In this document: positions 53 to 61,169 of the stretch, piece by piece
Layout of the letters: each line of letters begins with the position of its first letter
How positions within the stretch are numbered: the first letter of the stretch is position 1
Source of the DNA: a virus
IMG/VR virus record: IMGVR_UViG_3300028197_001024
Location: 10,468-74,467 of that record
Strand: one strand, 5' to 3'
DNA length: 64,000 nt
The notes under the pieces: model-generated
What the model saw: only the letters and a program-made list of their open reading frames with translations
Database searches by the model: none
What the model was told of the DNA's origin: nothing
Translations under genes and position numbers: made by a program

Positions 53-1102
53 ATGAATCTAGACTATACTAAGTTACTTAATCGTAATCCTATTTCTACC
101 GATCTTGATAAAATCCAAGAATACATAAAAGGAAAAAGAATACTTGTTACAGGTGGTGCTGGCTCAATAGGTAGTGAAATTGTACATCAACTTGTAAAAT
201 TTGGTGCTTCTACTGTTACTGTTTATGATAATGCCGAGGCTTCTGTTTTTCATTTAGAACAAGAGATAAGCAAATTATATCCTAAGTCTCATATTAAATA
301 TGTAATAGGTGATGTAAGAGATAAGTATAGATTAGAAGAAGTTTTTGATTCCTTTAAGCCTAGTATAGTTTTTCATGCAGCTGCTTATAAACATGTGCCA
401 ATGATGGAGGCTAATCCAGTTGAAGCAATAAAGACTAATGTATTAGGTACTATGAATGTCTCAAATATCTCATATATGAATGAGGTAGAAAAATTTGTAA
501 TGGTATCAACTGATAAAGCAGTTAATCCAACAAACATAATGGGTGCAACTAAAAGAATTGCAGAATTATATACTCAGTTTTTAGAAACAAAATCAGCAAC
601 TAAATTTATTGTTACAAGATTTGGTAATGTATTAGGATCTATAGGCTCTGTAATTCCAACATTTATAAAACAGATTGAAGGAGGAGGACCGGTTAGTGTT
701 ACTCATAGAGAAGTTATTAGATATTTTATGACTATACCTGAAGCATGCCAATTAGTATTACAGGCAAGTGTACTAGGAGAAGGTGGTGAAATATTATTAT
801 TTGATATGGGAGAACCTGTAAGTATTACAGATTTAGCAAAAAATTTAATAAAACATTTTAATAGTGATGCTAAAATAGAATATGTAGGATTAAGACCAGG
901 TGAAAAATTATATGAAGAACTGTTATGTGATGGTGAAAATATGGTACCTACCGATGATCATAATATTATGAAGTTAAACCACGAGGCTTATGATTTTAAA
1001 ACTTTAATACCTAAAATAGAAAAGCTATCAAAAATAAGATCAAATGATTTTTATAAAATACTCTTGTTAATGAAAAGTATTGTACCAGAATTTAAAAGAT
1101 AA
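53..1102 (+). CDS. UDP-GlcNAc 4,6-dehydratase (PglF/CapD-like catalytic domain)
   Basis: TGGAGSIGSE Rossmann motif, FHAAAYKHVP, STDKAVNP, MGATKR, RFGNVLGS, RPGEKLYEEL. Confidence 0.92.
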   Translation: MNLDYTKLLNRNPISTDLDKIQEYIKGKRILVTGGAGSIGSEIVHQLVKFGASTVTVYDNAEASVFHLEQEISKLYPKSHIKYVIGDVRDKYRLEEVFDSFKPSIVFHAAAYKHVPMMEANPVEAIKTNVLGTMNVSNISYMNEVEKFVMVSTDKAVNPTNIMGATKRIAELYTQFLETKSATKFIVTRFGNVLGSIGSVIPTFIKQIEGGGPVSVTHREVIRYFMTIPEACQLVLQASVLGEGGEILLFDMGEPVSITDLAKNLIKHFNSDAKIEYVGLRPGEKLYEELLCDGENMVPTDDHNIMKLNHEAYDFKTLIPKIEKLSKIRSNDFYKILLLMKSIVPEFKR

Positions 1103-1104
1103 AT

Positions 1105-2175
1105 ATGATAAAAGAATTATTAGTTAATACGTTATCACCTGAAAATGGTACTTATTTTCATATAGAAAATTTAAATCAGTGGGCATCTAAAGTAGAACTT
1201 AATGGTAAATTAGAAACTATTGAAGTAAATGGTAAAATAGCTTCTTATGTTGCATACTATGTTAATGATGAGAGGTATTTTATTACAATGGTATGGACGG
1301 ATCCTATCCATCGAGGAAAGGGTCTTTCAAAAAAGATAATTAAAAAATTAGTATCATCAACAGATCTTCCAATTGATTTAAGAGTTCATAAAGATAACCC
1401 TGCATATTGGTTATATAGGAATCTTAAATTTGAAGACGTTTCAGTCCATGGTGAAGAAATAGAATTAAGAAGAGTTAAAAAGATAGGAGTTATGCAACCT
1501 TATCTTTTTCCTTATGCCGGTTATTTTGGTTTAATAAATTCATGCGATAAGATTTTGTTTTATGATGATGTTAATTTTATTATGAGAGGTTTTATTAATA
1601 GGCAAAAAATATTGGTAAATGGATCTTCTCATACATTTAATATTTGTTTAAGTAAAGCAAGCCACAATAAATTTATTAACGAAATTGATCTTTTAAATGA
1701 TAAAAGAAAAAATTTAAAGGTACTAAAGACAATAGAATCTTCTTATAAAAAGGCTCCTTATTTTAATGATGTTTATCCTATAATTGAAAAGGTCATTAAT
1801 AGCGATTATAAAAAGTTAGATGAATTGGTAATATCTTCTATAGTAAGTGTATGTGATTATTTAGGAATGGATATAAATTGGGAAAGATCCTCGGTTGCAG
1901 AAGGTGATACTTGTGGAATGGAAAGAGGTAAGCGCCTTACTCAAATAGCAAAAAACCAAGGTTTTAATAATTACATAAATGTTGGCCCATCAGAACTTTA
2001 CACAAAAGAACAATTTAAAAGAGATGGTATAAATTTATTTTTTAATAAACATAATGTTAAAGAATATGATCAATTTGAAAAGCCATTTTTATCTCACTTA
2101 TCATGTATAGATTTTCTCATGTTTAATTCAAAAAGAAAATGCAAAGAATTAATTTTAAGTTATAATGTAATATGA
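1105..2175 (+). CDS. GNAT acetyltransferase fused to a WbqC-like domain
   Basis: N-terminal HRGKGLS acetyl-CoA motif and NPAYWLY; C-terminal MQPYLFPYAGYF, YDDVNF, YKKAPYF, LSCIDFLM typical of WbqC. Confidence 0.8.
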   Translation: MIKELLVNTLSPENGTYFHIENLNQWASKVELNGKLETIEVNGKIASYVAYYVNDERYFITMVWTDPIHRGKGLSKKIIKKLVSSTDLPIDLRVHKDNPAYWLYRNLKFEDVSVHGEEIELRRVKKIGVMQPYLFPYAGYFGLINSCDKILFYDDVNFIMRGFINRQKILVNGSSHTFNICLSKASHNKFINEIDLLNDKRKNLKVLKTIESSYKKAPYFNDVYPIIEKVINSDYKKLDELVISSIVSVCDYLGMDINWERSSVAEGDTCGMERGKRLTQIAKNQGFNNYINVGPSELYTKEQFKRDGINLFFNKHNVKEYDQFEKPFLSHLSCIDFLMFNSKRKCKELILSYNVI

Positions 2176-3287
2176 AAAGAATTTACTTATCACCACCTCA
2201 TATGTCAGGTAAAGAACTTGACTACATAAAAGAAGCCTTTGATCAAAATTGGATTGCACCGATAGGACCTCATCTTAATTTATTTGAAGAAAAGGTAAAA
2301 GAATATACTGGTGCTAAGCACGCAGTAGCTGTTACTTCAGGTACTGCCGGTATTCATTTAGGATTAAATGTATTAGGAGTAGGAGAAGGTGACTATGTAA
2401 TATGTTCTTCTTTAACATTTATAGGAACTGTAAATCCAATATTATATTGTGGAGCTGAGCCTATTTTTATAGATTCGGAAGAAGGGTCATGGAATATGGA
2501 TCCTCTTTTATTAGAAAAGGCAATACTTAATTCTTCTGCTATAGGTAAAAAACCTAAAGCTATTATACCTGTTCATATTTTTGGTATACCTTGTAATATG
2601 GACGCAATAAAAAAATTATCAAATGAATATGACATACCTATTCTTGAAGATGCAGCAGAAAGTCTGGGATCTAAATTTAATAATCAACATACTGGAACCT
2701 TTGGCACTATTGGGGTTTATTCTTTTAATGGAAATAAATTATTATCTACCTCTGGTGGTGGAGTAATAATAACAGATAATAAAGAAAAGGCTAACAAGAT
2801 GAGGTTCTTGTCTACACAGGCAAAAGATCCTATGCCATATTATCATCACACTGAAATAGGATATAATTATAGAATGAGTAATGTACTTGCTGCTATTGGG
2901 GTTGGTCAAATGGAAGTAATAGAAGATAGAATCAAAAGGACTAGAGAAATGAATGAAACTTATAGAAAGGAATTAGGAAAATATTTTTATTCATTTCAAG
3001 AAGAGTTAGAAACAGATAGGTCTAACATGTGGTTAACATGTGCTATCTTAAATGCTGAAAATAAACCAGATGATTTAATTGCTCATTTAGAAAAAGATAA
3101 CATTGAAGCAAGAAGAATTTGGAAGCCTATGCATGAACAGCCAATTCTAACTAAGTATTTGAAATATATAAATGGAAATAGTTCTTTATTATTTTTACAA
3201 GGTATATGTTTACCATCTGGGTCTAATATGACTGATGTAGATTTAAAAAGAGTAATAAGGTCAATAAAAACATTTTTTAACAAATGA
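2172..3287 (+). CDS. DegT/DnrJ/EryC1/StrS family NDP-sugar aminotransferase (PglE-like)
   Basis: IYLSPPHM, SGTAGIHL, EDAAESLGS, SFNGNK PLP lysine, GYNYRMSN, CLPSG. Confidence 0.93.
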   Translation: MKRIYLSPPHMSGKELDYIKEAFDQNWIAPIGPHLNLFEEKVKEYTGAKHAVAVTSGTAGIHLGLNVLGVGEGDYVICSSLTFIGTVNPILYCGAEPIFIDSEEGSWNMDPLLLEKAILNSSAIGKKPKAIIPVHIFGIPCNMDAIKKLSNEYDIPILEDAAESLGSKFNNQHTGTFGTIGVYSFNGNKLLSTSGGGVIITDNKEKANKMRFLSTQAKDPMPYYHHTEIGYNYRMSNVLAAIGVGQMEVIEDRIKRTREMNETYRKELGKYFYSFQEELETDRSNMWLTCAILNAENKPDDLIAHLEKDNIEARRIWKPMHEQPILTKYLKYINGNSSLLFLQGICLPSGSNMTDVDLKRVIRSIKTFFNK

Positions 3288-4180
3288 TAAATTTTGAAGA
3301 TTTCAAATTATTAGAGTCTTATATAGGAGAAGAAAACTTTGAAATTTTACTAGAAAAAAATCTTACTAGTGAAATTAACAAAAAGATTAAATTTGGTGTT
3401 GTGATGGCAACTCATAAGATAGCAGATGGTAGCGCTCAGACAGGCAGACAGAAGTACATGGATACACCTGCTATATTAAAAGATTCTTTAGGTTCAATCA
3501 AAAACCAAAAGTATGATAATTATGTAGTTTATTTAATTGGGGATAAATATGACGGTGACGAAGAAATTAAGACTGTAATGGATAGCGTAATTCCTAAAGG
3601 TAAACTTAAATATCACAATCTATCTACACCCGGTGAAAGAAATAAAGGTTTTACTAAAAAACAATTTAGATATACTGCAGGCTGTGGTGCAGTAAATAAA
3701 GGTCTACAAATGGCAAAGAATGATGGTTGTGATTATATTGTTAGACTTGATCATGATGATAAATGGACACCTAATCATTTAGAACTTTTAGCAAAAGCAT
3801 ACACACAGTACCCTGAATTAGCATATGTATTTACTAGAAGCCGTAAAAAGGTAGATGCAACAAATAGTTCAAAAAAGTTTATGTACCAACCTAGAGATGA
3901 AAGACATACTAATTTAATAGAGCCTAATAATCTAGGATACACTCACGGTGATGTTAGTCATTCTGCAGTTTCATGGAGACCTTCTATGTGTGGAGATCTA
4001 AGGTATCGTGATGCTGATGCTCAATGTAATACCGAACCTAAAATATCTAAAGAAAAAACTAATCCTGCTGACGTTGATATGTTTAATAGAATGATGAAAG
4101 CTATAAAGGATAAAGGTCACAAATACATGTACATACCAAAACTTACCAGTTTCTATAGAAACAGAAAAGGTAAATTCTAA
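3284..4180 (+). CDS. GT2 family glycosyltransferase with possible capsid-targeting N-terminus
   Basis: GVVMATH, SIKNQKY, AVNKGL, RLDHDDKW (DxD) and HLE motifs; N-terminus MINFEDFKLLES. Confidence 0.75.
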   Translation: MINFEDFKLLESYIGEENFEILLEKNLTSEINKKIKFGVVMATHKIADGSAQTGRQKYMDTPAILKDSLGSIKNQKYDNYVVYLIGDKYDGDEEIKTVMDSVIPKGKLKYHNLSTPGERNKGFTKKQFRYTAGCGAVNKGLQMAKNDGCDYIVRLDHDDKWTPNHLELLAKAYTQYPELAYVFTRSRKKVDATNSSKKFMYQPRDERHTNLIEPNNLGYTHGDVSHSAVSWRPSMCGDLRYRDADAQCNTEPKISKEKTNPADVDMFNRMMKAIKDKGHKYMYIPKLTSFYRNRKGKF

Positions 4181-4181
4181 T

Positions 4182-4191
4182 GAATATATAA
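4182..4191 (+). promoter_or_regulatory. Putative late promoter GAATATATAA
   Basis: Same motif precedes many virion genes in the window. Confidence 0.55.
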
Positions 4192-4214
4192 AAAAACAAT
4201 AAAAATTAACTATT

Positions 4215-4391
4215 ATGGAAAAATTTGAAGAAATTAAAGCACTTATCGAATCAGTAGGTGAAGACGTAGATAAGTTCTATGCTAAAGGTAACAAAGCAGC
4301 TGCTGTGAGAATTAGAAAATCAATGCAAGAAGTTAAGAATCTTGCACAAGAATTAAGATTACACGTCCAAGAGACTAAGAACAATATGTAA
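4215..4391 (+). CDS. Histone H1-like protein (Hc1 family, Bacteroidota type), 58 aa; not in the ORF track
   Basis: Translated by hand: MEKFEEIKALIESVGEDVDKFYAKGNKAAAVRIRKSMQEVKNLAQELRLHVQETKNNM; KGNKAAxxRxRK signature. Confidence 0.8.
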   Translation: MEKFEEIKALIESVGEDVDKFYAKGNKAAAVRIRKSMQEVKNLAQELRLHVQETKNNM

Positions 4392-4410
4392 CCTTACATA
4401 ACCACCTTTA

Positions 4411-4443
4411 AAAGGGCTATCTTTAATTAGATAGTCCTTTTTT
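4411..4443 (+). terminator. Rho-independent terminator
   Basis: AAAGGGCTATCT-ttaatt-AGATAGTCCTTT followed by a T tract. Confidence 0.75.
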
Positions 4444-4467
4444 AGTTTTTATTATCCTATTATACTT

Positions 4468-4494
4468 GAAACTTTTTTTAAAACTTCTATATAA
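4468..4494 (+). promoter_or_regulatory. Putative middle promoter AAAC-N17-TATAA driving the sugar/DNA-modification operon
   Basis: GAAAC, 17 nt, TATAA; same geometry at 11 other sites. Confidence 0.6.
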
Positions 4495-4514
4495 TAATAA
4501 ATCAGTTAATTTAT

Positions 4515-5066
4515 ATGGAAAGGTGCTTAATATTAGATTTTGACGATACTTTAGTTTCAACTATAGATACTCATGCAAATTCTTGGAAACTTGCAATAGA
4601 AAGAGTTCTAAATAGAGATATTCCTATAGAAACAATAATGTCAGATATTAATTATGGCATGGACGTTCTATTAAAGAAATATCAACTAACCGAAAAGGAA
4701 TCTAAATTAGCACAAGATTATAAAAGAAAAATATTTTCAAAGAATCTCCATAAAACCAAAATAAATCAATTACTTTTATGGGTAATTAAAAATTCTAAAT
4801 TTGAAAAAGTTATTATAGCTTCTAATTCATCTAGAGAAAATGTAGATAGAATTATGGCTTACCATAATATAAGCCCTGATTTATTCGATCTTATTGTAAC
4901 TAGAGATGATGTTAAAAATAAAAAGCCACACTCAGAAATGGCAGATTTAATTTTTTCAGTATTTCATGGTTATGAACCTAATGATTTTCTTATGGTTGGT
5001 GATTCAGAAGTAGATTCAACATTCGCACTTAAAAACAAAATGAAATGCATACTGGTAAAGTTTTAG
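4515..5066 (+). CDS. HAD-family phosphatase
   Basis: DFDDTL motif I, SNS motif II, KKP and GDSEVD motifs. Confidence 0.88.
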   Translation: MERCLILDFDDTLVSTIDTHANSWKLAIERVLNRDIPIETIMSDINYGMDVLLKKYQLTEKESKLAQDYKRKIFSKNLHKTKINQLLLWVIKNSKFEKVIIASNSSRENVDRIMAYHNISPDLFDLIVTRDDVKNKKPHSEMADLIFSVFHGYEPNDFLMVGDSEVDSTFALKNKMKCILVKF

Positions 5067-5791
5067 TAGGAAATAGTGGAGATAGAGTATATCTTCAAGA
5101 TGACAAAGTTATTAAAGAAGCAGGTGTTTATCCTATAAAGTTTAAACAACAAATGGATTGGTTAGCAAACTGTACCCATCCTAATTTTATAAAAATTAAA
5201 CCTATTTCAGATACTTCATTTGAAATGAAAAAGTACCCTACATGGTATGACAAGATTTGTGAACAGCCTTTAATTAAATCAATTGATCAATTGGATGATC
5301 TTATTCATATTGCTAATGATTTTGATGGATATGGTGCTGATGTAGATACAAGATCATATTTAGATAAATTAGAAGGTAGAACCGGGTATAAGTATGAAGG
5401 TAATTTAGATGCGGCATCTTCATGGGGTTTTGTACACGGAGACTTAACAGTAAGCAATATTCTTTATGATAAAGATTTTATATTTATAGATCCAAGAGGC
5501 ACAGAAGAACAGAATTATTATGATTATGGAAAACTGATGCAATCATTTGTAATGAAATATGAGGCCCATATATACAATGAAAGGAATTCTAAATATCTTA
5601 AGTTCTGTAGAGAAGCTGAAAATATAATGTATGAATGGTATGACGAATATCAATTAAAATTCTTTTTAGCAGTTCACCTATTAGGGGCCGTGCCTTTCTT
5701 TGAGCTAAATGAAAGATATGAATTGGCTGGTATGTTCCTTAAAAAAGGTCATGAATTATTTGATGAATTAGAAATAAAATATAGTAAATGA
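5045..5791 (+). CDS. APH/choline-kinase-fold phosphotransferase (probable sugar kinase)
   Basis: GNSG, HGDLTVSNIL, FIDPRG, YDYGKL. Confidence 0.75.
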   Translation: MHTGKVLVGNSGDRVYLQDDKVIKEAGVYPIKFKQQMDWLANCTHPNFIKIKPISDTSFEMKKYPTWYDKICEQPLIKSIDQLDDLIHIANDFDGYGADVDTRSYLDKLEGRTGYKYEGNLDAASSWGFVHGDLTVSNILYDKDFIFIDPRGTEEQNYYDYGKLMQSFVMKYEAHIYNERNSKYLKFCREAENIMYEWYDEYQLKFFLAVHLLGAVPFFELNERYELAGMFLKKGHELFDELEIKYSK

Positions 5792-6492
5792 AAAGAGTAA
5801 GTAAAGCAATTATATTAGCAGCAGGTCGTTCAACAAGATATGGCAAAAACAAATTAGTAGATCCTATCTTAGGTAAATCAACTGTTGAATATTGTATTGA
5901 ATTTTGTATTGAGAATGGAATAGAAGATTGCTATATTACAATCAGTAAAGCAGATTTCTTTTTTAAAGATAACGTAAAACTTTCTCATCCTATTATTGAA
6001 AAACTAAACAAATACAAAAAGGATATTAATATCTTTTATGAATTTCAAAAGGATGATGAATATGGACCAGGCGCCGCTATAAAGGTTTGGTCTGGTAAAT
6101 TTAATGAAGCTTTCTTATGTTTATTTGGAGATAATTACTACCAAGGAAATATAGGATTAGAATATCATGATCCAAACAGTACAGTTGTTACTTATAAAGA
6201 TTATGAAACAAGAGCTAGGAATTTACAATTAGCATCTATATTAGAAAATGTTGTTATTGAAAAACCGCATGGAATTGTTTCAGGAAGGTACTTCTGTGGT
6301 TATATGATATTTTCAAAAGAAGCATTTAATAATCTTGACAGTATTAAAATGTCAAATAGAAATGAATATGAAATTACCCATTTGATTAACTCAATGGATA
6401 ATTTAAAATTTGAAGAATTAGATATATGTTGGTATGACTTAACATATGAAAATGATAAAGAAGTAATAGAAGAATTAATAAAAACATGTTAA
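5788..6492 (+). CDS. Sugar-1-phosphate nucleotidyltransferase (RmlA-like fold)
   Basis: AIILAAGRSTRY, FGDN, IEKP, SNRNEYEIT. Confidence 0.85.
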   Translation: MKRVSKAIILAAGRSTRYGKNKLVDPILGKSTVEYCIEFCIENGIEDCYITISKADFFFKDNVKLSHPIIEKLNKYKKDINIFYEFQKDDEYGPGAAIKVWSGKFNEAFLCLFGDNYYQGNIGLEYHDPNSTVVTYKDYETRARNLQLASILENVVIEKPHGIVSGRYFCGYMIFSKEAFNNLDSIKMSNRNEYEITHLINSMDNLKFEELDICWYDLTYENDKEVIEELIKTC

Positions 6493-7755
6493 ATGGAAAA
6501 TGTTAAAAAAATAGGTTTCTTTAAACTAGGTAAAGCGATTAAGTTTAATGAAAACAGTTGGAGTGCAATCGGTGGTGATTGTGAACCTAAACAATTAATC
6601 TGTTCAATTGCAAAAAGAAACCCTAATATTGAATATTGGTTATTAAGCCCAAATGATTTAGGTAAGTTTAGAGCTAAACAAAAACCTAAAGTAAATTCTT
6701 TATTTGGCCCTCCTCCTACAGATGAACCCGTAGTTCCTAATAATATTAAGGAATTTCATTCAACTATGAAGGAGAGAAAATCTACTGATGAAACTGTTGA
6801 AATTATTCAAGGTTTAGATTTAGATTTTATTTTCTTTTATACTGGTCCAACAAGTACCGTTAATATTCCAGAGTATATTAATAAGAAAGATGGTACTGGT
6901 CAAGTTAAGTCATTAGACTTCTTTAAGTATTATGCTGCTCCTATTATTAAATCAATGAATGAGTTGGAAAAGAAAGTTCCTATTGTTGGTTTACTTGTTG
7001 ATAACCGTTATATTCTTGCATGTAAAGACTGGGGAATTAATAATAGACCAACTTATTACTTAGCACAAAATACATTTACTAAAGAAGAACAATATTTCTG
7101 TAACCCACCACTAAGAGATGTTAAAACTATTACATCTACTTATGAATATTCAGGCATTGAAACGGTATTCTTATTAGATAAGAAAAGATATGATACTGAT
7201 GAATTATTTAAAATGAAAAAGACTGATTCATTTATGATGTTACAGAATCAAGGTAAAGGTTCAGGTGGAATGGATCGTTGGGATCCAGTAAAAGAATATA
7301 TTGTTGATCAAGAAATAGAGACTGATATTTACGGAAAATGGGATGATGAGATTAAGGAAATGTATCCTAAATGGTTTAAAGGAGAAACGAGAATTGAAAC
7401 AATGACCGATGAATTACTTGGTACTAAATATACATTCTGTGTACCTATTAAAGAAGGTATGGTAACCTCTAAGTATGCCGAAATGCTACACTATGGTATT
7501 ATACCATTCTTACACCCGTCTTACGACACCGACTTTAATGTCTTTCCAGAAGGTCATTTTATTAGATGTAAATCAGCAGAGGATTTAAAAAAGAAAATTG
7601 AATTCTTAAATGCAAACCCAGAGCATTATAAGAAATTATTTTATAACCTACAAGAAAAGTATCTTAAGGATTCTTATTATACCGGAGAACATGTAGACAA
7701 CAAGATCTGGGAATCTTATGAACGAGTAACTAAAACTGAAACTATAAATGTATAA
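6493..7755 (+). CDS. GT-B glycosyltransferase resembling T4 beta-glucosyltransferase (candidate DNA glycosyltransferase)
   Basis: C-terminal DIYGKW...VTSKYAEML..IIPFLHPSYDT...SAEDLKKKIEFL parallels the BGT C-domain; N-terminal KIGFFKLG; operon context. Confidence 0.6.
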   Translation: MENVKKIGFFKLGKAIKFNENSWSAIGGDCEPKQLICSIAKRNPNIEYWLLSPNDLGKFRAKQKPKVNSLFGPPPTDEPVVPNNIKEFHSTMKERKSTDETVEIIQGLDLDFIFFYTGPTSTVNIPEYINKKDGTGQVKSLDFFKYYAAPIIKSMNELEKKVPIVGLLVDNRYILACKDWGINNRPTYYLAQNTFTKEEQYFCNPPLRDVKTITSTYEYSGIETVFLLDKKRYDTDELFKMKKTDSFMMLQNQGKGSGGMDRWDPVKEYIVDQEIETDIYGKWDDEIKEMYPKWFKGETRIETMTDELLGTKYTFCVPIKEGMVTSKYAEMLHYGIIPFLHPSYDTDFNVFPEGHFIRCKSAEDLKKKIEFLNANPEHYKKLFYNLQEKYLKDSYYTGEHVDNKIWESYERVTKTETINV

Positions 7756-8770
7756 TTCCGAAACAAAAATCCTAGTCACTGGTGGTGCTGGGTTCGTTGG
7801 TACAAATTTTATTAACGATTTATTAAATAGAGGTCATAATCCAAAATGCATTGCGGTTATTGATAACATGGAGCACGGTACTTATATTGCAAAGGTACAT
7901 GACCAAATTGAAAATTTTCATAAAGTAGATATTAGAAATCAATATGTAGAAAACATTATCCAAGAGTTTTCACCCGATTATGTTTACCACTTTGCTGGTT
8001 TAGTTTCTATTTATGACTGCCATGAAGATCCGTATGAAGCCGTAGATAATAATATCTTAGGAAGTATTAATGTAATGAATGGTTGTGTAAAGGCAGATGT
8101 AAAAAGAATTATCTTTAGTGAAACTTCTGCAGTATATGAAAATTGTGAAATGCCTAAAGAAGGATTTAACGAAAAGCAATCTGATCCTACTACAATTTAT
8201 TCTACTACTAAAGCATGCCTTGCTCTATTGGCAGAATCATATCAGAGAACTAAAGGTTTAAATTATACTGCATTAAGATACTTTAATGTTGCAGGGCCTC
8301 TACAAGATTATAATAGAACCATCCCACCTGTATTTGCTGGGTTTATTTTAAGAATTAAAGGTAATCATAATCCTATAGTGTTTGGTGATTATATGAAAGC
8401 AAGAGATTATATTGATGTATCTGATGTTAATGCATTTCATATTCTTTGTATGGAAAATGAAAACACTGCAAACCAAACATTTAATTTAGGTACTGGTAAA
8501 ATGACAAACTTAATGGATCTTAAAAATATGATTGGTGAGATTATGGGAGTTGGTGAACCTACATTTGATCACTATGATCCTATTGCAGGTGAAGCTCTAA
8601 ATATTAGAGGAGATATTTCTAAAGCTAAGTCAATGGGATGGGAACCTAAAAAAGATATCAGAGATACGATAAAAGAAACGATAGTTTATCTTGAAGAAGA
8701 AATTAACCAAGGGACTATTGATCCACTAACATTTATGGAAAATTTAGAAATCGAAAAAGTAAAAATTTAA
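7748..8770 (+). CDS. NAD-dependent NDP-sugar epimerase/dehydratase (GalE-like SDR)
   Basis: TGGAGFVG, YSTTK (YxxxK), LRYFNVAG, RDYIDVSD, FNLGTG. Confidence 0.9.
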   Translation: MYNSETKILVTGGAGFVGTNFINDLLNRGHNPKCIAVIDNMEHGTYIAKVHDQIENFHKVDIRNQYVENIIQEFSPDYVYHFAGLVSIYDCHEDPYEAVDNNILGSINVMNGCVKADVKRIIFSETSAVYENCEMPKEGFNEKQSDPTTIYSTTKACLALLAESYQRTKGLNYTALRYFNVAGPLQDYNRTIPPVFAGFILRIKGNHNPIVFGDYMKARDYIDVSDVNAFHILCMENENTANQTFNLGTGKMTNLMDLKNMIGEIMGVGEPTFDHYDPIAGEALNIRGDISKAKSMGWEPKKDIRDTIKETIVYLEEEINQGTIDPLTFMENLEIEKVKI

Positions 8771-8771
8771 T

Positions 8772-10034
8772 ATGGAAAAAGAATTAAAATGGGGTACTAT
8801 GATTCCGTTAATCGGTGGGAGTGCAATAGGTTGTAAAAAATCTGCAGGTAATGAGCCAGCATTTCATTTAAGCTATGAAGCAATGGCTGCTAATGAAAGT
8901 CATATCGAAAAATATTGGCCAGAAGTACCTATGTACAGATTAGATCATGAAGATTTAGATATACCTGAGAAAACATTTCAAGAAGTAGATTATGTAAATT
9001 CTGTTTGCCCGTGTGCAGGTTTGTCACAGTTAAATTCTGCGAAAGGTAGTGCATCATCTAGAGGATCCGATGCGGTTCAAAATCAATGGATGTATAATTC
9101 AGCAGAGTATGTTTTGGAGAATGTTAAACCTAAAGTACTTTGGGGAGAAAATGCACCAGGGCTTTTTACTAAAATGGGAGAAGGTGTTGTTGACAATCTT
9201 AAAGCCATCGGTGAGAAATATGGATATAGCTTTTCATTAATTAAAACTAACACTGAGTTGCATGGAATTCCACAAAGAAGAATAAGAACATTTTATTTCT
9301 TTTGGAATACACCAACAGTTCCTATGTTAAGTTGGAAGTTTAGAGAAAAGAAAAATCTTATTGATTATCTTAATGAAATACCAGAAGATGCTACACAACA
9401 GGATATGTTTATGGTTGAAGGCAAAGTCAGTGATCATTTTAAACCTTACGAATATGTTTTAGAAAAAGAAGGTTTAACGCATTCTGAATTTGCTGCCAAA
9501 TTTAAAAAGGGTACTATCGCTCAATATCTAGAAAAGAATGAATTAATACCTGATTGTATTAAATGGTTAGAAAAACATTATCCTAAAAGAGGGTTTTCAA
9601 ATAAAAAATCTACAAAGACTTTTATTGATATGCTAGAACACCAAGAATACAAAACGAGCCAAGGTTTAGGTTACTGGGATGCATCACCGCATTTCTTCCA
9701 TGATTCTTTTTCTGCCCTTATAGGTAGAAACATGTTTAATGGTGTTCATCCTATAGAAAACAGATATCTTAATGTAAGAGAAATGCTTCACTTAATGGGG
9801 CTACCTTTAGATTTTGGTATTGAAAGTTCAAGGCAAGTAAATCATATTGCACAAAATGTACCAGTTACTACTGCAATGGATATGGCAGATGAAGTAAAGA
9901 AATTTTGTAATGGAGAAGCTAAGATGACAAATTACACCTTCTTAAAACAAGATAATACTAGTCACAAAATAATTGACTCTACTGAAATTGGAGCAGAACC
10001 AAAAAAGAAGTATAAAGTAAAAAGTATAATTTAA
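8772..10034 (+). CDS. DNA cytosine-C5 methyltransferase-fold protein with atypical motif I
   Basis: Motif IV CPCAGLS, VI ENAPGL, VIII PQRRIRTF, IX RYLNVRE, X IAQNVP; motif I reads IPLIGG rather than FxGxGG. Confidence 0.8.
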   Translation: MEKELKWGTMIPLIGGSAIGCKKSAGNEPAFHLSYEAMAANESHIEKYWPEVPMYRLDHEDLDIPEKTFQEVDYVNSVCPCAGLSQLNSAKGSASSRGSDAVQNQWMYNSAEYVLENVKPKVLWGENAPGLFTKMGEGVVDNLKAIGEKYGYSFSLIKTNTELHGIPQRRIRTFYFFWNTPTVPMLSWKFREKKNLIDYLNEIPEDATQQDMFMVEGKVSDHFKPYEYVLEKEGLTHSEFAAKFKKGTIAQYLEKNELIPDCIKWLEKHYPKRGFSNKKSTKTFIDMLEHQEYKTSQGLGYWDASPHFFHDSFSALIGRNMFNGVHPIENRYLNVREMLHLMGLPLDFGIESSRQVNHIAQNVPVTTAMDMADEVKKFCNGEAKMTNYTFLKQDNTSHKIIDSTEIGAEPKKKYKVKSII

Positions 10035-10041
10035 ATTAATT

Positions 10042-11058
10042 ATGAAAGATAAAGGATTAGCCATAGGTATATCAAGCCTAGAGTTTACTAATATCTTATG
10101 TAGTTATTATCCTAAAGGGATCAAAGAAAAATTTGATATCTATTTATTTGTGGATGATACTAAAATAGATTTAGAAAAGCTTCAGTGTATTTTTGAAGAG
10201 CATGATTTAGATATTTTTAAAAATGCAAAGATTATAATTTTAAATGACCTTTATAACCATTACATAGAAAAACATGGTTACGAAGGAAGATCAAAAGAAT
10301 TTCTATTAAGTCATGGCTGCCTCTTTAAAATATTAATGCCTATATACTTAAAGGAAAAATTTGGAGTAAAAAGAACATTAGTATCAGATGATGATGTATT
10401 TATTTTAAACGATCTTAGTTATATGTGGGATGAATATGAAGAGTTTGGCATAAAAAAGGAAAACTTATTTTACATTAGAAATAAAGATAAGTATGAAGTC
10501 ATGGATTGTTTTAACGGTATTTTTGAATCTAATTTTAGCTTAGATGAAATGAATGCCCTTTCCATAAATGCAGGCAATATAATATATGGAGAAGATCCTA
10601 AATTAGAATATTACTTTGAGAGATTTATGAAACACCCATTTATACATCATCAGTATTTTAATTTTACTGGGTATACAAGTTGGACTGTAGAACAAAGATT
10701 CCATCACTTTAATGTTCATAGGTATTTAGCAGAAGGAAGAAAGGTTAAATTTACTGAAAGTAAAGACTTAAGATTAATGCAGAATAGAGACAAGATGATG
10801 AAAGCAGGTACACCACCAGACAAATATCTTAAAGTAGTTGTACCTTCTATAATTCATTATGCAATAGGTGTAAAGAAGCCTCTATGGTTAAATGATTTTT
10901 TACCAGGATTAGAATGGAGATACGGTTTTAAGTATGAAGCAAAATACGAACTTAAAAATATCTTATACGATAAAAATTGGTCACCGCCTTCGTTTAAAAG
11001 TATACAAAAGAATGGATTTATATTAAAAAAGGAATTAAAAACAAAATCAATATTTTAA
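10042..11058 (+). CDS. Putative GT-A fold glycosyltransferase
   Basis: VSDDDVFIL DxD motif, INAG, EQ and IIHY elements as in GT8-like proteins; operon context. Confidence 0.55.
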   Translation: MKDKGLAIGISSLEFTNILCSYYPKGIKEKFDIYLFVDDTKIDLEKLQCIFEEHDLDIFKNAKIIILNDLYNHYIEKHGYEGRSKEFLLSHGCLFKILMPIYLKEKFGVKRTLVSDDDVFILNDLSYMWDEYEEFGIKKENLFYIRNKDKYEVMDCFNGIFESNFSLDEMNALSINAGNIIYGEDPKLEYYFERFMKHPFIHHQYFNFTGYTSWTVEQRFHHFNVHRYLAEGRKVKFTESKDLRLMQNRDKMMKAGTPPDKYLKVVVPSIIHYAIGVKKPLWLNDFLPGLEWRYGFKYEAKYELKNILYDKNWSPPSFKSIQKNGFILKKELKTKSIF

Positions 11059-11084
11059 AAGATAAAATTACAAAAAGAAAATAG

Positions 11085-11882
11085 ATGAAAGATAGAAAAA
11101 GTATACCTGTTATTGGAGTTCCTGTAGTAAATGGAGTTCATTGGGTAAAAAGATTAATGCTATCAGTTGATTACCCTGTAGATAATTTATTTATAATTAA
11201 TAATAATGGAAGAGGAGAAATTAATGAAGAATTAGATAAGTTAAAAAATATATCTAATAAATTTATTAAGAATATACACATTACACATTTACCTAGTAAT
11301 TTAGGAGTCCCGGCAGCTTGGAATTTAATTATTAAATCATTTTTAATGGAGCCTTATTGGATAATTTCTAACCATGATGTTGCCTTTTCACCTGGTTTAT
11401 TAGAAGAATTTTCAAATATGGCTCAGGATAAACAAATAAGTATGATTCATCCTAGAGCAGGTGTATTTGGTGTAGGTACATATGATTTATTTGCTATAAC
11501 TGAAATAGGGGTAAAAACGATAGGATTATTTGATGAAAATTTATATCCTGCTTATGGAGAAGATACTGATTATATAATGAGAGTTCTAAATTTAAATCCA
11601 AAGGTTTGTAGAGGATTGACTTATACTTATTTACATGGAAAAGAAATAGCCGATTGTGTCAATTATGAAAATAATGGTCGACAAACGTCTAAAGAAGAAC
11701 CTCAAATGCAAGAAAAATTAAATAATGTTAATTATAAAAATTACAAATATTTAGATGAAAAATGGGGAGAGCATTGGAGAGGTTTAACTCCTTATAAATT
11801 TCCTTTTAATAATAAAGAATATTCTAATTCTTACACTTCATGGGATATAGATTATATAAGAGAAAAATATTTAGACTTTTAA
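11085..11882 (+). CDS. GT2-like glycosyltransferase
   Basis: NLGVPAAWN, NHDV, IGLFDENLYPAYGEDTDY. Confidence 0.75.
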   Translation: MKDRKSIPVIGVPVVNGVHWVKRLMLSVDYPVDNLFIINNNGRGEINEELDKLKNISNKFIKNIHITHLPSNLGVPAAWNLIIKSFLMEPYWIISNHDVAFSPGLLEEFSNMAQDKQISMIHPRAGVFGVGTYDLFAITEIGVKTIGLFDENLYPAYGEDTDYIMRVLNLNPKVCRGLTYTYLHGKEIADCVNYENNGRQTSKEEPQMQEKLNNVNYKNYKYLDEKWGEHWRGLTPYKFPFNNKEYSNSYTSWDIDYIREKYLDF

Positions 11883-11977: not shown

Positions 11978-12727
11978 ATGGAAACAAAAATTAACAAAAT
12001 TGACGGTTATGAATTAAGTTCATTCGTTCGCAAATTACTTCCAATTGACAAATTCATCTTTATGAAAATCGCAAAAGAGGGTACTGTATCTTCTGTGTAT
12101 TTCCCTGAGAGGGATGCCGTAAAATTGGTTAACACACCTACCTCAGATATATTTGAGGCTGATATTGAAAACCCAGTAAAGGTAAGCTTTTACAATGGTA
12201 CTAAAGTTATTGATGCATTAAGCCATTTTAATGGTGATGTAAAAGGTCGCATTAAATATACTGAATATGATGGAGAATTAATGGCAAGTGATTTTATTTT
12301 AGAAAATGAAGATCTTCAGATTAATTTAGCCTGTACAGATCCTTCGTTATCTTTTATGGAAATGAGTAAAGAAGAAACTGACCGAGCGTTTGATGTGGAT
12401 TCTAAAATGTTTAGTTTTGATTTACTTACTACTCATGTAGATAAAATGAAATCATTATTTAATTTAGATAAAGATGAGGATATCTTTACTCTCTATATTG
12501 GAGAAAAAGGAATTAACATTAAAGGTACTTCTTATGACGCTACGCTATGTCACTCTTATGATTCTGATGTAGAGAAAGGTTCAAAGGTTGTCATATACAA
12601 AAAATATGTTAATCTTCTAGATAAAGAAAATTATAAGGTAAGTGTATGTGAAAACAAGGTTGTTTTCAAATCATTAGATACAAATACACACCTTACTGTG
12701 GCTGTGGCCATTACTGATGAGGATTAA
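11978..12727 (+). CDS. Probable DNA sliding clamp (gp45-like)
   Basis: About 250 aa, acidic and beta-rich, directly upstream of the polymerase; clamp loader is present in the window; no diagnostic motif. Confidence 0.55.
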   Translation: METKINKIDGYELSSFVRKLLPIDKFIFMKIAKEGTVSSVYFPERDAVKLVNTPTSDIFEADIENPVKVSFYNGTKVIDALSHFNGDVKGRIKYTEYDGELMASDFILENEDLQINLACTDPSLSFMEMSKEETDRAFDVDSKMFSFDLLTTHVDKMKSLFNLDKDEDIFTLYIGEKGINIKGTSYDATLCHSYDSDVEKGSKVVIYKKYVNLLDKENYKVSVCENKVVFKSLDTNTHLTVAVAITDED

Positions 12728-12742
12728 TAATACCTCAAATAT

Positions 12743-12771
12743 AAAAAGGGCATCATAATCGGTGCCCTTTT
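12743..12771 (+). terminator. Rho-independent terminator
   Basis: AAAAAGGGCATC-ataatc-GGTGCCCTTTT. Confidence 0.7.
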
Positions 12772-12805: not shown

Positions 12806-13924
12806 ATGACAGAGGAATTACAAAAAATCAACGAAGAAGCATCAAAATTCTATAATTACGAACAGGCTGTTAAATTAATGCTTAACTCTATTTACGGTGC
12901 ATTTGGTAATCCTTATTTTTATTTCTTTAATGTTGATATTGCAGAAACTATTACACTCCAAGGTAAAGATGCAATTCTATATACTGAACAATTAGTTAAT
13001 AAGTATTTTAAGGAATTCTGGCATAAGGATTTACCAGCTCATGCTGCTATGGGTATTACTGTAACTGGTAAAATTGAAAAACCTGTAGGTATTTATATTG
13101 ATACAGATTCAGTGTATGTTAAATTTGATGAAGTAATTCAAAAATCAGAAGGCTGGGTTGGTGATGAAAAAGAATTTATACTTAAGCTTTATAAGGTTAG
13201 GTTAAATGGTTACATAGAAAAGATTCTACAAAAATATGCAGATGATAATAATGCAGAAAACTTTTTATCTTTTGAATTAGAAAGTATTGCTAAAAATGCA
13301 ATATGGTTGGCAAAGAAAAAGTATATGCAGAATATAGTTTGGAAGGATCCTGATATTCATTACGATGATCTCTCTAAGATTAGTTCAAAAGGATTTGAAA
13401 TCATTCAGTCATCTACCCCTATTTTTGCAAGAGAAAAACTAAAAGAACTATTAACTTATATCTTTTCTGTTAGTGAATTAGATATGGGAGCCTTTGCTTC
13501 TTTACTTAAAGATGTTAAAAGGCAATTTAGATTAGCCAATGTTGATCAAATTAGTTTTTCAAGAAAAGTAAATAATTATCAAAAGTATATTGTAAATGAT
13601 TATGAGCAATTTGAAATTGCATCAAAATGTCCAATTGGTGTAAGATCTGCAGGCTATCATAATTACTTACTAAATAATTCAGGCAAGAAAGGTAAATATC
13701 AACCACTAGGAAATGGTGAAAAATGTAAAATGTATTTTTCTGAAGATAAGTCATGTGATGTGTTTGCTTATGCACCAGGTGATTTTCCTTATGAGTTCGC
13801 GCCTAAAATAGATTATGATAGGCAATTTGAAAAAACAATATTGGATCCTATAAACAGAGTTGTTACTGCTATGGGTTTTAAAGGATTTAACAGAAATCTT
13901 ATTTACACAACCAGCCTATTTTAA
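12806..13924 (+). CDS. Family B DNA polymerase, C-terminal subunit of a split enzyme (gp43B-like)
   Basis: Motif B KLMLNSIYG, motif C YIDTDS, KKKY, thumb region; no exonuclease domain or motif A. Confidence 0.9.
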   Translation: MTEELQKINEEASKFYNYEQAVKLMLNSIYGAFGNPYFYFFNVDIAETITLQGKDAILYTEQLVNKYFKEFWHKDLPAHAAMGITVTGKIEKPVGIYIDTDSVYVKFDEVIQKSEGWVGDEKEFILKLYKVRLNGYIEKILQKYADDNNAENFLSFELESIAKNAIWLAKKKYMQNIVWKDPDIHYDDLSKISSKGFEIIQSSTPIFAREKLKELLTYIFSVSELDMGAFASLLKDVKRQFRLANVDQISFSRKVNNYQKYIVNDYEQFEIASKCPIGVRSAGYHNYLLNNSGKKGKYQPLGNGEKCKMYFSEDKSCDVFAYAPGDFPYEFAPKIDYDRQFEKTILDPINRVVTAMGFKGFNRNLIYTTSLF

Positions 13925-13940
13925 TAAAAATAAAATAAAG

Positions 13941-59484: not shown

Positions 59485-60102
59485 ATGAGTAAATTTATTA
59501 TCATAGAGGGTACTGATAACACAGGTAAAGATACACAACAAGATCTAATAATTAAAAAGATGAATAATAATGTATTTCATAAATTACATTATTCATCTCT
59601 TCCTTTTAAAGATGATAAAAATAAACATGCTACTTACTCTAAAAAGATGTATGATGGTATGTTTAAATTAATGATGAAATCTAAATTAGGTGAACAGCCT
59701 ACTGATGAACCTATCAATCTTATATTTAATAGATCCCATTTAGGTGAAACTGTTTATTCTCCACTTTATAGAGGTTACTCTGGTGATTATGTTTTTGATA
59801 TTGAAAAGAAATACACTAAAGCATTAAGAGAAGATTTATATTTAATTACATTAACAAATGATCCTCATACTATTCTAAAAAGAGATGATGGTAAATCATT
59901 CTATGGTAATGAAGAAGAAGTAAAGGCAGAGGTTGATGGTTTTAATAGAGCTCATCGTTTAAGTACAATTAAAAATAAGTTATTACTAAATATTGGTACT
60001 ATGAGTGCTGAAGAAGTATCAAATATTATTATAGATTTTCTTAATCATAAAAATACTATCACTGGAGATTCTAAACAATTAAATATATTCAACGATGTGT
60101 AA
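59485..60102 (+). CDS. Thymidylate-kinase-like dNMP kinase (candidate modified-dCMP kinase)
   Basis: IIIEGTDNTGKDT P-loop, FNRSHLGETVYSPLYR. Confidence 0.75.
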   Translation: MSKFIIIEGTDNTGKDTQQDLIIKKMNNNVFHKLHYSSLPFKDDKNKHATYSKKMYDGMFKLMMKSKLGEQPTDEPINLIFNRSHLGETVYSPLYRGYSGDYVFDIEKKYTKALREDLYLITLTNDPHTILKRDDGKSFYGNEEEVKAEVDGFNRAHRLSTIKNKLLLNIGTMSAEEVSNIIIDFLNHKNTITGDSKQLNIFNDV

Positions 60103-60274
60103 AGCAGAAGATATATTATATGAAGCTCATAATGAAGGAATACGAGATGAGGTCCTTAATGAAAGTAGAAAATTATTAAATGAAGGTGGTAAATATACTT
60201 ATATGGAATTTGCTGACCGATTAGAAATAGCAATAAGAAACATTAGAGAAATAAAAAAAAATGAGAGTATTTAA
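60095..60274 (+). CDS. Small hypothetical protein, 59 aa; not in the ORF track
   Basis: MCKAEDILYEAHNEGIRDEVLNESRKLLNEGG...; overlaps both neighbours. Confidence 0.5.
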   Translation: MCKAEDILYEAHNEGIRDEVLNESRKLLNEGGKYTYMEFADRLEIAIRNIREIKKNESI

Positions 60275-61169
60275 AGGAGAGACATTTGCAGAGGCATATA
60301 ACTATGCACTAGGTAGTATTATTCATAATCCTAATTATGTATCATCACCAAGAGGTATGAAGATTAATGAAATATCAGATGCCGCTATTGTAATTGAAGA
60401 TCCTACGTTTTGTTTATATGACAATTCTCGTAGGAGTAGTCAATTTAAATATATTGCAGCAGAATTAGTTTGGTATTTCACTGGTCGTAAAGATGCTGAT
60501 TTTATTACACCTTATGCAAAATTCTGGGATCAGATTAAAAATAAAGATGGTTCAGTAAATTCAGCTTATGGTAATCTTATCTTCACTGAAGAATTAGAAG
60601 ATGGTAGAAATCAATATCGCTGGGCGTTAGATTCTTTAATTCAAGATAAAGATTCAAGACAAGCAATTTTACATTTCAATAAACCATCACATCAATGGTA
60701 TGGTAATAAAGATTTTGTATGTACGCTTAATGGCATATTTCAAATAAGAGATAATAAATTAAACTTTACTATTGATATGAGATCTAATGATCTTATCTTA
60801 GGTACACCTACGGATGTTGCATTCTTTTGTCTTTTACAAATACAAATGCTAGAACATTTAAGAAAATACTATCCTGAATTAGAATTAGGTACTTATACTC
60901 ATATTGCACATTCTTTACATTTATATGAAAGGCATTTTAATCTTGCGAGTGAAATGTTAGAAAAATCATTTAACCCTCAATCATTTCCAGATATGACAGA
61001 GTTTTTAATTGATCCAAACGGTAAACCCTTAGATGGTTTAAATCAATTAGAAGAAGAAATGATTCAGATGAATGATTTAGTTTTTAATGGTAATGCAAGT
61101 TACACTGTAGATAAACATGATGATCTTTTACATCAATGGATATCTGATGCAATCTTTGGAAATATATAA
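60261..61169 (+). CDS. Thymidylate-synthase-fold dCMP-modifying enzyme (gp42-like dCMP hydroxymethylase or hydroxylase)
   Basis: ELVWY, NSAYG, DSRQA, DFVCT catalytic Cys, MRSNDLILGTPTD (Asp at the dCMP specificity position), SLHLYERH. Confidence 0.78.
   Translation: MRVFKGETFAEAYNYALGSIIHNPNYVSSPRGMKINEISDAAIVIEDPTFCLYDNSRRSSQFKYIAAELVWYFTGRKDADFITPYAKFWDQIKNKDGSVNSAYGNLIFTEELEDGRNQYRWALDSLIQDKDSRQAILHFNKPSHQWYGNKDFVCTLNGIFQIRDNKLNFTIDMRSNDLILGTPTDVAFFCLLQIQMLEHLRKYYPELELGTYTHIAHSLHLYERHFNLASEMLEKSFNPQSFPDMTEFLIDPNGKPLDGLNQLEEEMIQMNDLVFNGNASYTVDKHDDLLHQWISDAIFGNI
61160..61169 (+). promoter_or_regulatory. Putative late promoter
   Basis: AAATATATAA just upstream of 61187. Confidence 0.5.

Follow-up and report, generated by a model that had tools for sequence, protein, structure and literature searches.

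What would a phage decorate with eight closely packed genes for sugar activation, sugar transfer and cytosine chemistry: its DNA or some other molecule? The question is raised by the operon at positions 4515-11882 of the window, by which we mean the whole stretch of 64,000 nucleotides analysed here (bases 10468-74467 of a 74,467-bp IMG/VR viral contig, estimated to be 27% complete and with about 30% G+C). Judging from sequence and predicted structure, the operon is likely to form the post-replicative half of a cytosine hypermodification system of T4/RB69 type, in which a sugar activated by the phage itself would be placed on 5-hydroxymethylcytosine (5hmC). DNA is taken as the target of the core genes because of the homology of one glycosyltransferase (GT) to T4 beta-glucosyltransferase (BGT), the presence of gp42- and gp56-type genes, the linkage of the genes and the clamp-type tails of their products. 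The same evidence supports the proposal of a first-pass annotation of this DNA that the phage makes its own nucleoside diphosphate (NDP)-sugar and glycosylates hydroxymethylcytosine with a BGT-like enzyme.

The eight open reading frames (ORFs; Table 1) lie on the plus strand and overlap or are separated by at most 26 nt, and both the tightly packed operon and the folds named for it in the first-pass annotation were confirmed. The order Hc1, HAD, kinase, nucleotidyltransferase, GT-B, epimerase, methyltransferase (MTase)-like gene, p249 and family-B DNA polymerase (PolB) is shared by 42 related viral contigs (GT-B identity 75-99%), and the arrangement is thus not due to chance. The replication-class promoter proposed earlier also stood, as the motif AAAC-N17/18-TATAA, found at 4469, is enriched in the window (18 sites vs. 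6.5 +/- 2.4 expected) and also precedes replication genes and the operon of the Tmk-like kinase and the hydroxymethylase (at 59448). We read 4515-11882 as one transcription unit because of this motif and of the terminator-like hairpins that flank the unit at 4410-4441, after the Hc1 gene, and at 12744-12771. The p249 gene is appended to the unit behind its own copy of the motif.

The system is likely to work as the T4 glucosyl-5hmC pathway does, with an RB69-type home-made sugar donor added. A gp56-type dCTPase would remove dCTP, the enzyme at 60261 would make 5-hydroxymethyl-dCMP, and the Tmk-like kinase at 59485 would feed the polymerase; the DNA would then carry 5hmC for cytosine, with dTMP supplied by a true ThyA elsewhere in the genome. 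The APH-fold kinase would phosphorylate a sugar or sugar-phosphate at C1, the HAD enzyme would remove or move the distal phosphate, the nucleotidyltransferase would form the NDP-sugar and the GalE-type enzyme would epimerise C4. The BGT-like GT-B would transfer this sugar to 5hmC in DNA, at the hydroxymethyl group, a GT8-like enzyme would add a second sugar where it is present, and GT2b would possibly add a third in the window phage. The GT-B, the GT8-like and the MTase-like enzymes would be tethered to newly made DNA by the clamp.

Table 1. Positions of the operon, its flanks and the pre-replicative genes in the window.
Feature	Position	Strand	Basis or remark
Upstream amino-sugar module: PglF/PseB-like 4,6-dehydratase, GNAT+WbqC, DegT aminotransferase, GT2	53..4180	+	
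Hc1 histone-H1-like DNA-binding protein	4215..4391	+	E 3e-23; all relatives keep the gene just 5' of the operon
Promoter-like site AAAC-N17-TATAA	4469..4494	+	Also TTGAAA-18-TATAAT at 4466-4495; 11/12 sigma-70-type match
HAD-IA hydrolase	4515..5066	+	HAD_2 2e-21
APH/ePK-fold sugar kinase	5045..5791	+	HGDLTVSN...IDPRG core
Sugar-1-phosphate nucleotidyltransferase (RmlA/GlmU-N/ST0452 type)	5788..6492	+	AAGKSTRYG; NCBIfam 1e-17
GT-B, remote T4 BGT homologue, predicted 5hmC-DNA glycosyltransferase	6493..7755	+	Profile and structure
GalE-type NDP-sugar 4-epimerase (SDR)	7748..8770	+	Epimerase 2e-46
C5-cytosine-MTase-like enzyme	8772..10034	+	DNA_methylase PF00145 2.5e-19; motif I PLIGG; tail KVKSII
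GT-A, GT8-like retaining type (X338)	10042..11058	+	AF2 fold; C-terminal tail KTKSIF
GT2 (GT2b)	11085..11882	+	Glycos_transf_2 1e-5; phrog_29879 5e-27
Conserved 249-aa protein p249, putative gp45-type sliding clamp	11978..12727	+	Position and size fit
Terminator-like hairpin closing the unit	12744..12771	+	
C-terminal half of split family-B DNA polymerase	12806..13924	+	Ends YTTSLF
Tmk-like dNMP kinase	59485..60102	+	Upstream of hydroxymethylase, behind promoter motif at 59448
Predicted gp42-type dCMP hydroxymethylase	60261..61169	+	L143D, D169 kept, N177D

The GT-B and its predicted acceptor

The C-terminus of the GT-B had been noted to parallel T4 BGT, and profile and structure searches agreed with this. 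When the profile of the GT-B family was searched against PDB sequences, T4 BGT was the top match (1bgt, E 3e-7) and a fucosyltransferase (1.3e-3) the only other family at E<=1, and hhalign of the family against BGT gave 91.8% (E 7e-7) over 194 columns, with the N-domain outside the alignment. The AlphaFold2 (AF2) model (pLDDT 92) had BGT as all of its top six Foldseek matches. VIA-align superposed it on BGT over 315 residues in both domains (Z 22.7, rmsd 3.6); the next family reached Z 20.3, T4 alpha-GT 18.8 and the HY126 arabinosyltransferase (9iqz) 16.5. Three UDP-binding residues of BGT have counterparts in the family, R195 in the nearly invariant R262, R269 in the invariant K327 and E272 in E330, while R191 corresponds to G258, which is not conserved. 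In Pfam the window GT-B gave a weak match to Glyco_trans_1_2, and a scan of 60 GT-B proteins (the window protein and 59 family members) matched this family in 31 and Glyco_transf_10 in 13. Searches of the PDB with the single sequences of the GT-B and of X338 found nothing; information came from the family profile and the folds alone. The GT-B is a remote homologue of BGT with the same two-domain GT-B fold, and BGT is its nearest solved structure; it is predicted to transfer a sugar to 5hmC in DNA.

The pre-replicative genes fit such an acceptor. The enzyme at 60261, correctly called gp42-like in the first-pass annotation, is a thymidylate synthase (TS) homologue that matches T4 dCMP hydroxymethylase (best PDB match, 9e-23) and MilA far better than thymidylate synthases (ThyA about 1e-10). 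Its signature reads DFVCT and MRSNDLILGTPTD, with the catalytic Cys kept. In an alignment with T4 gp42, RB69 gp48 and true ThyA it has D at C-3, D169 and D177, as gp42 does, whereas RB69 gp48 has N169. According to PMC13326640, N177D gives cytosine specificity, L143D/E gives water access and D169N marks the 5-hydroxycytosine (5hoC) type. By these residues the enzyme appears to be a gp42-type dCMP hydroxymethylase, with the signature of a 5hmdCMP synthase and not of a 5hodCMP synthase. Upstream of the window, at contig 4951-5475, lies a homologue of the gp56-type dCTPase/dUTPase (34% identity to T4 gp56, E 6e-25), and longer relatives carry a second, canonical ThyA.

It could be argued that the acceptor is instead 5hoC with an ether-linked sugar, as in RB69, DLP3 and RL38J1, since the AfhE-like kinase logic is common to 5hoC phages and both classes include TS homologues with L143D/E and N177D (PMC13326640). 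All experimentally tested 5hodCMP synthases, however, carry D169N (PMC13326640), while the window enzyme, with T4 dCMP hydroxymethylase as its closest PDB match, keeps D169. So do its distant homologues: in 59 viral loci with distant GT-B members (27-33% identity, outside the clade of the window), scored with hidden Markov models, D169 and D177 were found in 43/43 TS homologues. We therefore regard 5hoC as a very improbable acceptor and continue with 5hmC.

A methyltransferase-like partner and polymerase-like tails

In the 59 distant loci the GT-B is accompanied by an MTase-like gene in 57 cases and by a TS homologue in 43, and most of the loci lacking the latter are short contigs. The genes follow a fixed order on one strand (PolB, TS, GT-B, an optional AfhE-like protein of about 500 aa or a GT8, MTase), and those of the GT-B and the MTase frequently overlap. 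Cultured carriers are Pseudoalteromonas phage XG4, Enterococcus Denvervirus phages and Agathobaculum phages, together with Bacillus phage G, which has alpha-GT-type transferases. The MTase-like enzyme of the window has motifs IV, VI, VIII, IX and X intact, its PF00145 match is above the cut-off, and 38 distinct distant members conserve PCAgLS, gENAP, QxRxR, RE..M..P.DF and NHIxQNVPV. Throughout the family motif I reads PLIGG, as opposed to the canonical FxGxG, and the Pfam match begins at profile position 47. The family always stands beside a dCMP-specific TS homologue in the examined loci, even in cyanophage S-TIM5, which is without the GT-B. In S-TIM5 (NC_019516, gp076 and gp080) the MTase-like gene is near an N177D TS homologue with CPPCH at the catalytic Cys, and this phage may make C5-modified dCMP although it has no GT-B.

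A C5-MTase fold within a GT cluster also recalls the post-replicative route in which a C5-MTase makes 5-methylcytosine, a 5mYOX/TET oxidase converts it to 5hmC and GTs decorate it. Such clusters combine the C5-MTase fold with GT-A and GT-B enzymes and decorate 5hmC with mono- to trisaccharides (Burke et al. 2021, PMC8256090; Pyle et al. 2023, bioRxiv 10.1101/2023.12.21.572611). No dioxygenase was found with the window operon, as a scan for Tet_JBP (PF12851) at E<=1 drew a blank in the 74-kb contig and in four relatives, the longest of them 181 kb, all of these records being incomplete. Therefore the nucleotide pool is the predicted source of 5hmC, and the GTs cannot be acting on the product of the MTase. 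A complete pre-replicative set is present instead, and contigs with both ThyS and 5mYOX are very rare, six being given in bioRxiv 10.1101/2023.12.21.572611. Together these observations leave the oxidase route with a very small chance.

For the MTase-like enzyme, ordinary methylation would have little substrate, because the dCTPase and the hydroxymethylase should leave C5 occupied. It is probably an active cytosine-directed enzyme that works with the GT-B. We give a nearly even chance to the role of a backup, in which it would methylate cytosines that escape replacement. Alternatively, it would not be a backup methylase and would carry out, tethered to the clamp, new chemistry on C5-substituted cytosine in DNA, which we consider rather unlikely; an attack at C6 might for example make 5hmC or glycosyl-5hmC reactive, so that it could be exchanged, removed or substituted further, or a cofactor other than S-adenosylmethionine (SAM) might be used. 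A targeting role is a further possibility.

The polymerase and the modification enzymes have similar C-termini. In T4, the tail of the polymerase gp43 binds the gp45 clamp. Six of the 66 genes in the window end in [LIVM]F, compared with 0.8 expected, namely the C-terminal half of the polymerase, a topoisomerase (topoisomerase II large subunit, 55004-56881), a 5'-3' exonuclease (RNase H/FEN type, 36227-37450), a TnsA-like endonuclease (26020-26496), a small ORF beside the helicase (19215-19712) and X338; the MTase ends in KSII. The topoisomerase, exonuclease, endonuclease and small ORF share the polymerase-like tail, here [K/S]-x-[L/I]-F, which points to further clients of the clamp. In the distant loci the tail L..F[FLMIVT]x0-2 was found in PolB (14/24), the MTase-like enzyme (29/40) and the GT-B (18/46), against a background of 0/32 for TS, 0/11 for the kinase fusion, none for the SDR, nucleotidyltransferase and Tmk proteins and 4/866 for other ORFs. 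There PolB ends in ...SLEDFF(G/S/A), close to ...SLDFLFG of T4 gp43 and ...SLFDMFDF of RB69. The tail also co-varies by lineage, as a PolB ending in ...ELDDW is accompanied by a GT-B ending in ...GLDDW and an MTase ending in ...EAEQW. In the clade of the window the ends are YTT[SN]LF in PolB (41/41), K..S[VL]F in X338 (26/26) and KV.S[IVT][IF] in the MTase, and the GT-B has an internal K..[SP]LFG in a variable, low-confidence loop (K-x-x-S-L-F-G, window protein residues 64-72). It is probable from these motifs that the GT-B, the GT8-like and the MTase-like enzymes are recruited to new DNA by the sliding clamp. For a DNA glycosyltransferase, T4 offers a precedent for such recruitment, since its alpha-GT binds gp45 (PMC13216743, citing Sommer et al. 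2004). A complex prediction for p249 with the X338 tail (residues 289-338) scored 0.02 and gave no answer, speaking neither for nor against binding.

The sugar and the molecule it may decorate

Supply of the sugar by the phage is suggested by the first three genes and the epimerase. The HAD protein matches a beta-phosphoglucomutase-family hydrolase (1.6e-13, below the curated cut-off) and is conserved in 34 of the 42 relatives with enough flank; it is predicted to be a sugar-phosphate phosphatase, AfhF-like in role, with a phosphomutase as an alternative. The kinase is weakly APH in Pfam (E 0.008) and matches phrog_21938 (4e-11) and gp311 of phage G (96.5%). The nearest solved relative of the nucleotidyltransferase is ST0452, a dual Glc/GlcNAc-1-P enzyme (PDB 2ggo, 3e-10), and that of the epimerase is UDP-glucose 4-epimerase (4zrm, 4e-40), with SETSAVY...YSTTK and without the dehydratase DE dyad. 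An ADP-heptose product, one of the rare-sugar pathways brought up in the first-pass annotation, was rejected as the SDR is nearer to GalE (9e-40) than to heptose 6-epimerase (3e-29), the nucleotidyltransferase is not HldC-like and no GmhA is present.

The link to a known scheme comes through other lineages, in which the proteins of about 500 aa between GT-B and MTase are nucleotidyltransferase-kinase fusions; the 559-aa protein of XG4 has Pfam NTP_transferase and APH domains. The profile of the fusion proteins matches the N-terminal domain of RB69 AfhE (1.5e-9), its C-terminal domain (p052, 3.6e-10) and the window kinase (1.8e-8), as well as gp309 and gp311 of phage G, and the window kinase and the AfhE C-terminal domain match the same region of it. 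Compared directly by hhalign, the window kinase and the RB69 AfhE half align weakly (57%, 29 columns), and so do the window nucleotidyltransferase and its AfhE half. By way of the intermediate profile the window kinase is assigned as a homologue of the AfhE kinase half, a link that holds for the kinase only. The window thus appears to hold a split and rearranged form of the AfhE/AfhF scheme characterised for RB69, DLP3 and HY126 (PMC13326640), with another nucleotidyltransferase lineage, a type-IA HAD and an added GalE-type epimerase. The gene combination had been called unrecognised in the first-pass annotation, a view that does not hold, as the logic of phosphatase, APH kinase and nucleotidyltransferase is that of AfhE/AfhF.

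The remaining GTs are less uniformly kept. The AF2 model of X338 (residues 1-244 confident) matches XXYLT1, glycogenin, LARGE1 and Mnt2 at E 1e-6, with no Pfam hit and an atlas lead to PF01501. Its invariant motifs are DDD116-118 and HYxxGxKKPxW, and a DxD with an H..G..KPW-type motif is what we take to define GT8. X338 is fast-evolving (45-93% identity) or missing among the 42 relatives, and it is the only extension GT with a clamp-type tail; it is predicted to be a second-sugar transferase acting on DNA. GT2b has no tail. None of the 42 related contigs has this gene, and the G+C content of its stretch is the lowest in the window (0.259), so that a recent acquisition is probable. A di- or trisaccharide on cytosine is plausible. 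The upstream module (53-4180) forms a separate transcription unit with a KdsA-family gene before it and the Hc1 gene after it, and its GT2 is without a tail. It looks like a bacillosamine-type (2,4-diamino-2,4,6-trideoxyhexose) pathway, the slot of its GNAT+WbqC N-acyltransferase being filled by a PglD-type acetyltransferase in most relatives. This module and the gp56-type dCTPase lie outside the boundaries first drawn.

These genes also bring up a different reading, in which a glycan other than DNA is built or remodelled (host lipopolysaccharide, O-antigen or capsule for superinfection exclusion, or virion proteins) and the location among replication genes is incidental. GT8, GT2, GalE, PglF/PseB, DegT, PglD/WbqC and KdsA-type enzymes are standard in surface-polysaccharide synthesis, and variable GT clusters of cyanophages and jumbo phages have been read as diversification of the outer polysaccharide (PMC7824862). 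In metagenome mining, most viral contigs with GTs have no base-modification partner (bioRxiv 10.1101/2023.12.21.572611). Furthermore, GT2b is unique to this contig, X338 is variable and the upstream module is transcribed separately. However, BGT as the closest solved relative of the GT-B would be left unexplained, and so would the near-obligate link of the GT-B to the C5-MTase fold and dCMP-specific TS homologues, and the polymerase-type tails that occur on the GT-B, MTase and GT8 and never on enzymes of soluble metabolites. For the operon as a whole we find a non-DNA glycan quite improbable, while for the upstream module and GT2b alone it is a serious possibility, if somewhat short of even.

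The predicted glycosylation of 5hmC has to be weighed against several observations that do not favour it. The presence of GT8, GT2 and PglF/E/D-type genes is typical of surface-glycan synthesis, as said above. The homology of the GT-B to BGT is remote (11-13% identity) and GT-B folds are broadly alike, with GT4 enzymes reaching Z about 20; none of the 60 proteins in the Pfam scan matched the BGT family (CAZy GT63, Pfam PF09198) at E<=0.01. MAFFT places the catalytic Asp100 of BGT on E157 and not on the invariant D170, whose context LLVDNRY resembles LFTD100IRL of BGT by eye only. The window GT-B lacks a C-terminal tail and has the internal motif only, and with C5 substituted throughout the DNA there would be little sense in a C5-MTase. 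Regarding the clamp and polymerase that had been placed downstream, the polymerase stood, as a C-terminal half only, while the clamp was not confirmed by sequence: hhalign of p249 against T4 gp45 gave 2%, its profile found nothing in the PDB, and a weak language-model/atlas lead was all that was obtained. On the side of the donor, the nucleotidyltransferase is not detectably related to the MurU-like one of AfhE (fusion profile E 0.11; RB69 p053 only over the GxGTR loop), and the HAD is of type IA (beta-phosphoglucomutase/phosphoglycolate phosphatase-like) and not GmhB-like. No SIS-domain sugar-phosphate isomerase was found in the 74-kb contig, which is about 27% of the genome, and a host enzyme could serve. 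Finally, a literature search found no experimental DNA chemistry for phage G, XG4, S-TIM5 or Denvervirus phages, nor for any cultured carrier of the GT-B family.

Relation to known systems and meaning

The system resembles that of T-even phages in that it has a gp56 homologue and a gp42 homologue with the active-site signature of gp42, its GT-B has BGT as the closest solved relative and its genes are neighbours of the polymerase and of a UvsX-like gene. In contrast to T4, the GT-B is outside the Pfam BGT family, the donor would be made by the phage instead of being host UDP-glucose, the Tmk-like kinase is not gp1-like, and there are an extra GT8 and GT2 and an MTase-like partner, which T4 lacks. 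With the arabinosyl-5-hydroxycytosine systems of RB69, DLP3 and HY126 it shares the logic of kinase, HAD phosphatase and nucleotidyltransferase, the kinase being homologous via the intermediate profile. Other shared points are the location next to the polymerase, the Tmk-like kinase adjoining the TS homologue and the presence of several GTs for oligosaccharides. Unlike in those phages, the kinase and nucleotidyltransferase are separate genes in reverse order, the nucleotidyltransferase is of another lineage, the HAD is of type IA, a GalE-type epimerase is added, D169 is kept, there is an MTase-like partner, and no arabinose 5-phosphate isomerase was found in the window contig. The first GT is BGT-like, whereas theirs are BshA/PimA-like (HY126 9iqz, Z 16.5).

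Among cultured phages, gp301-gp319 of phage G include a C5-MTase, two alpha-GT-like GTs, a nucleotidyltransferase, a HAD, a kinase homologue, a Tmk-like kinase, a D169/D177 TS homologue and also a dCMP deaminase; they differ in the alpha-GT type of the transferases. In vB_Psh_XG4, at 0.1-6.6 kb, a TS homologue, an AfhE-like fusion, the GT-B (32%), a second GT-like gene and the MTase-like gene (33%, E 2e-64) are found within 6.5 kb. In the stretches examined, both phages lack the GT8/GT2 extension and the epimerase. Metagenome mining has described neighbourhoods of GT-B and ThyS that also contain genes for an epimerase, an APH phosphotransferase, a methyltransferase and a clamp (bioRxiv 10.1101/2023.12.21.572611), and in the sections covered no description of the GT-B/MTase pairing or of clamp-type tails was found. 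The main text of the MetaGPA paper does not mention methyltransferases or glycosyltransferases. A literature search found no description of a BGT-like family with a near-obligate MTase partner, nor of polymerase-type tails on these enzymes.

The contig carries T4-type genes (a gp44-type clamp loader, a DnaB-like helicase, an SbcC-like protein, a gp15-like tail protein and a UvsX/RecA-like recombinase) as well as a type II topoisomerase and a ribonucleotide reductase. Its close relatives are of marine origin and include contigs as long as 219 kb; the source is therefore a marine T4-like phage, abundant and uncultured, with a genome of about 200 kb or more. A nucleotide search with the operon against 50,697 phage records gave no match. 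The module is found in 42 close and at least 282 distant viral contigs, with 379 clusters of the GT-B family at 50% identity, and is common in ocean viromes. The polymerase gene is split, with the exonuclease/N-terminal half at contig 5498-6904 and the C-terminal half about 16 kb away, and the intervening DNA holds the ribonucleotide reductase, a KdsA-like gene, the amino-sugar module and all of the modification operon. In T4 and RB69 the modification genes are located between uvsX and gene 43, and the location of the operon is comparable.

Other lineages have variable slots filled by a small SAM-methyltransferase, a WavE-like gene, a helicase or a cyclophilin. In related phages a 205-aa SAM-methyltransferase sits between the epimerase and the MTase-like gene (L029:12277-12894) and a WavE-like gene follows p249 (L006:15384-16325); the slot in XG4 holds the second GT-like gene (L005:4238-5344). 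Between the polymerase C-terminal half and the RecA/UvsX-like gene lies an ORF of 595 aa (window 13860-15647) with no Pfam or PHROG family, which is 49-60% identical or absent in relatives otherwise 90%+ identical. Directly 3' of the hydroxymethylase is an ATP-grasp enzyme (RimK-like; phrog 'ribosomal protein S6 glutaminyl transferase'; window 61187-62665), and a DNA glycosylase of the Fpg/Nei family (contig 4100-4936) comes directly before the gp56-type gene, which the N-terminal half of the polymerase follows. Two sigma-70 family factors of extracytoplasmic function (ECF) type are encoded at contig 3014-3586, upstream of the window, and at window 63277-63915.

Glycosylated cytosines are a main counter-measure of phages against restriction enzymes, CRISPR nucleases and DNA glycosylases, and DNA-glycosylating enzymes such as BGT are workhorses of epigenomic technology. 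The module predicts an uncharacterised sugar on 5hmC. Its interest, however, lies mainly in the paradox of the MTase and in the clamp tail as a marker. An intact cytosine-C5 methylase fold that always travels with genes already filling C5 is a puzzle, and the first-pass annotation listed this fold without accounting for its role; should that role be new chemistry, the PolB-TS-GTB-MTase module would make an undescribed kind of cytosine derivative at the replication fork. The tails raise the question of whether DNA-decorating enzymes are generally recruited to the clamp by a polymerase-like tail. If this were general, a tail that co-varies with that of the polymerase would be a computational marker by which DNA-directed glycosyltransferases could be separated from those of surface glycans in viral genomes.

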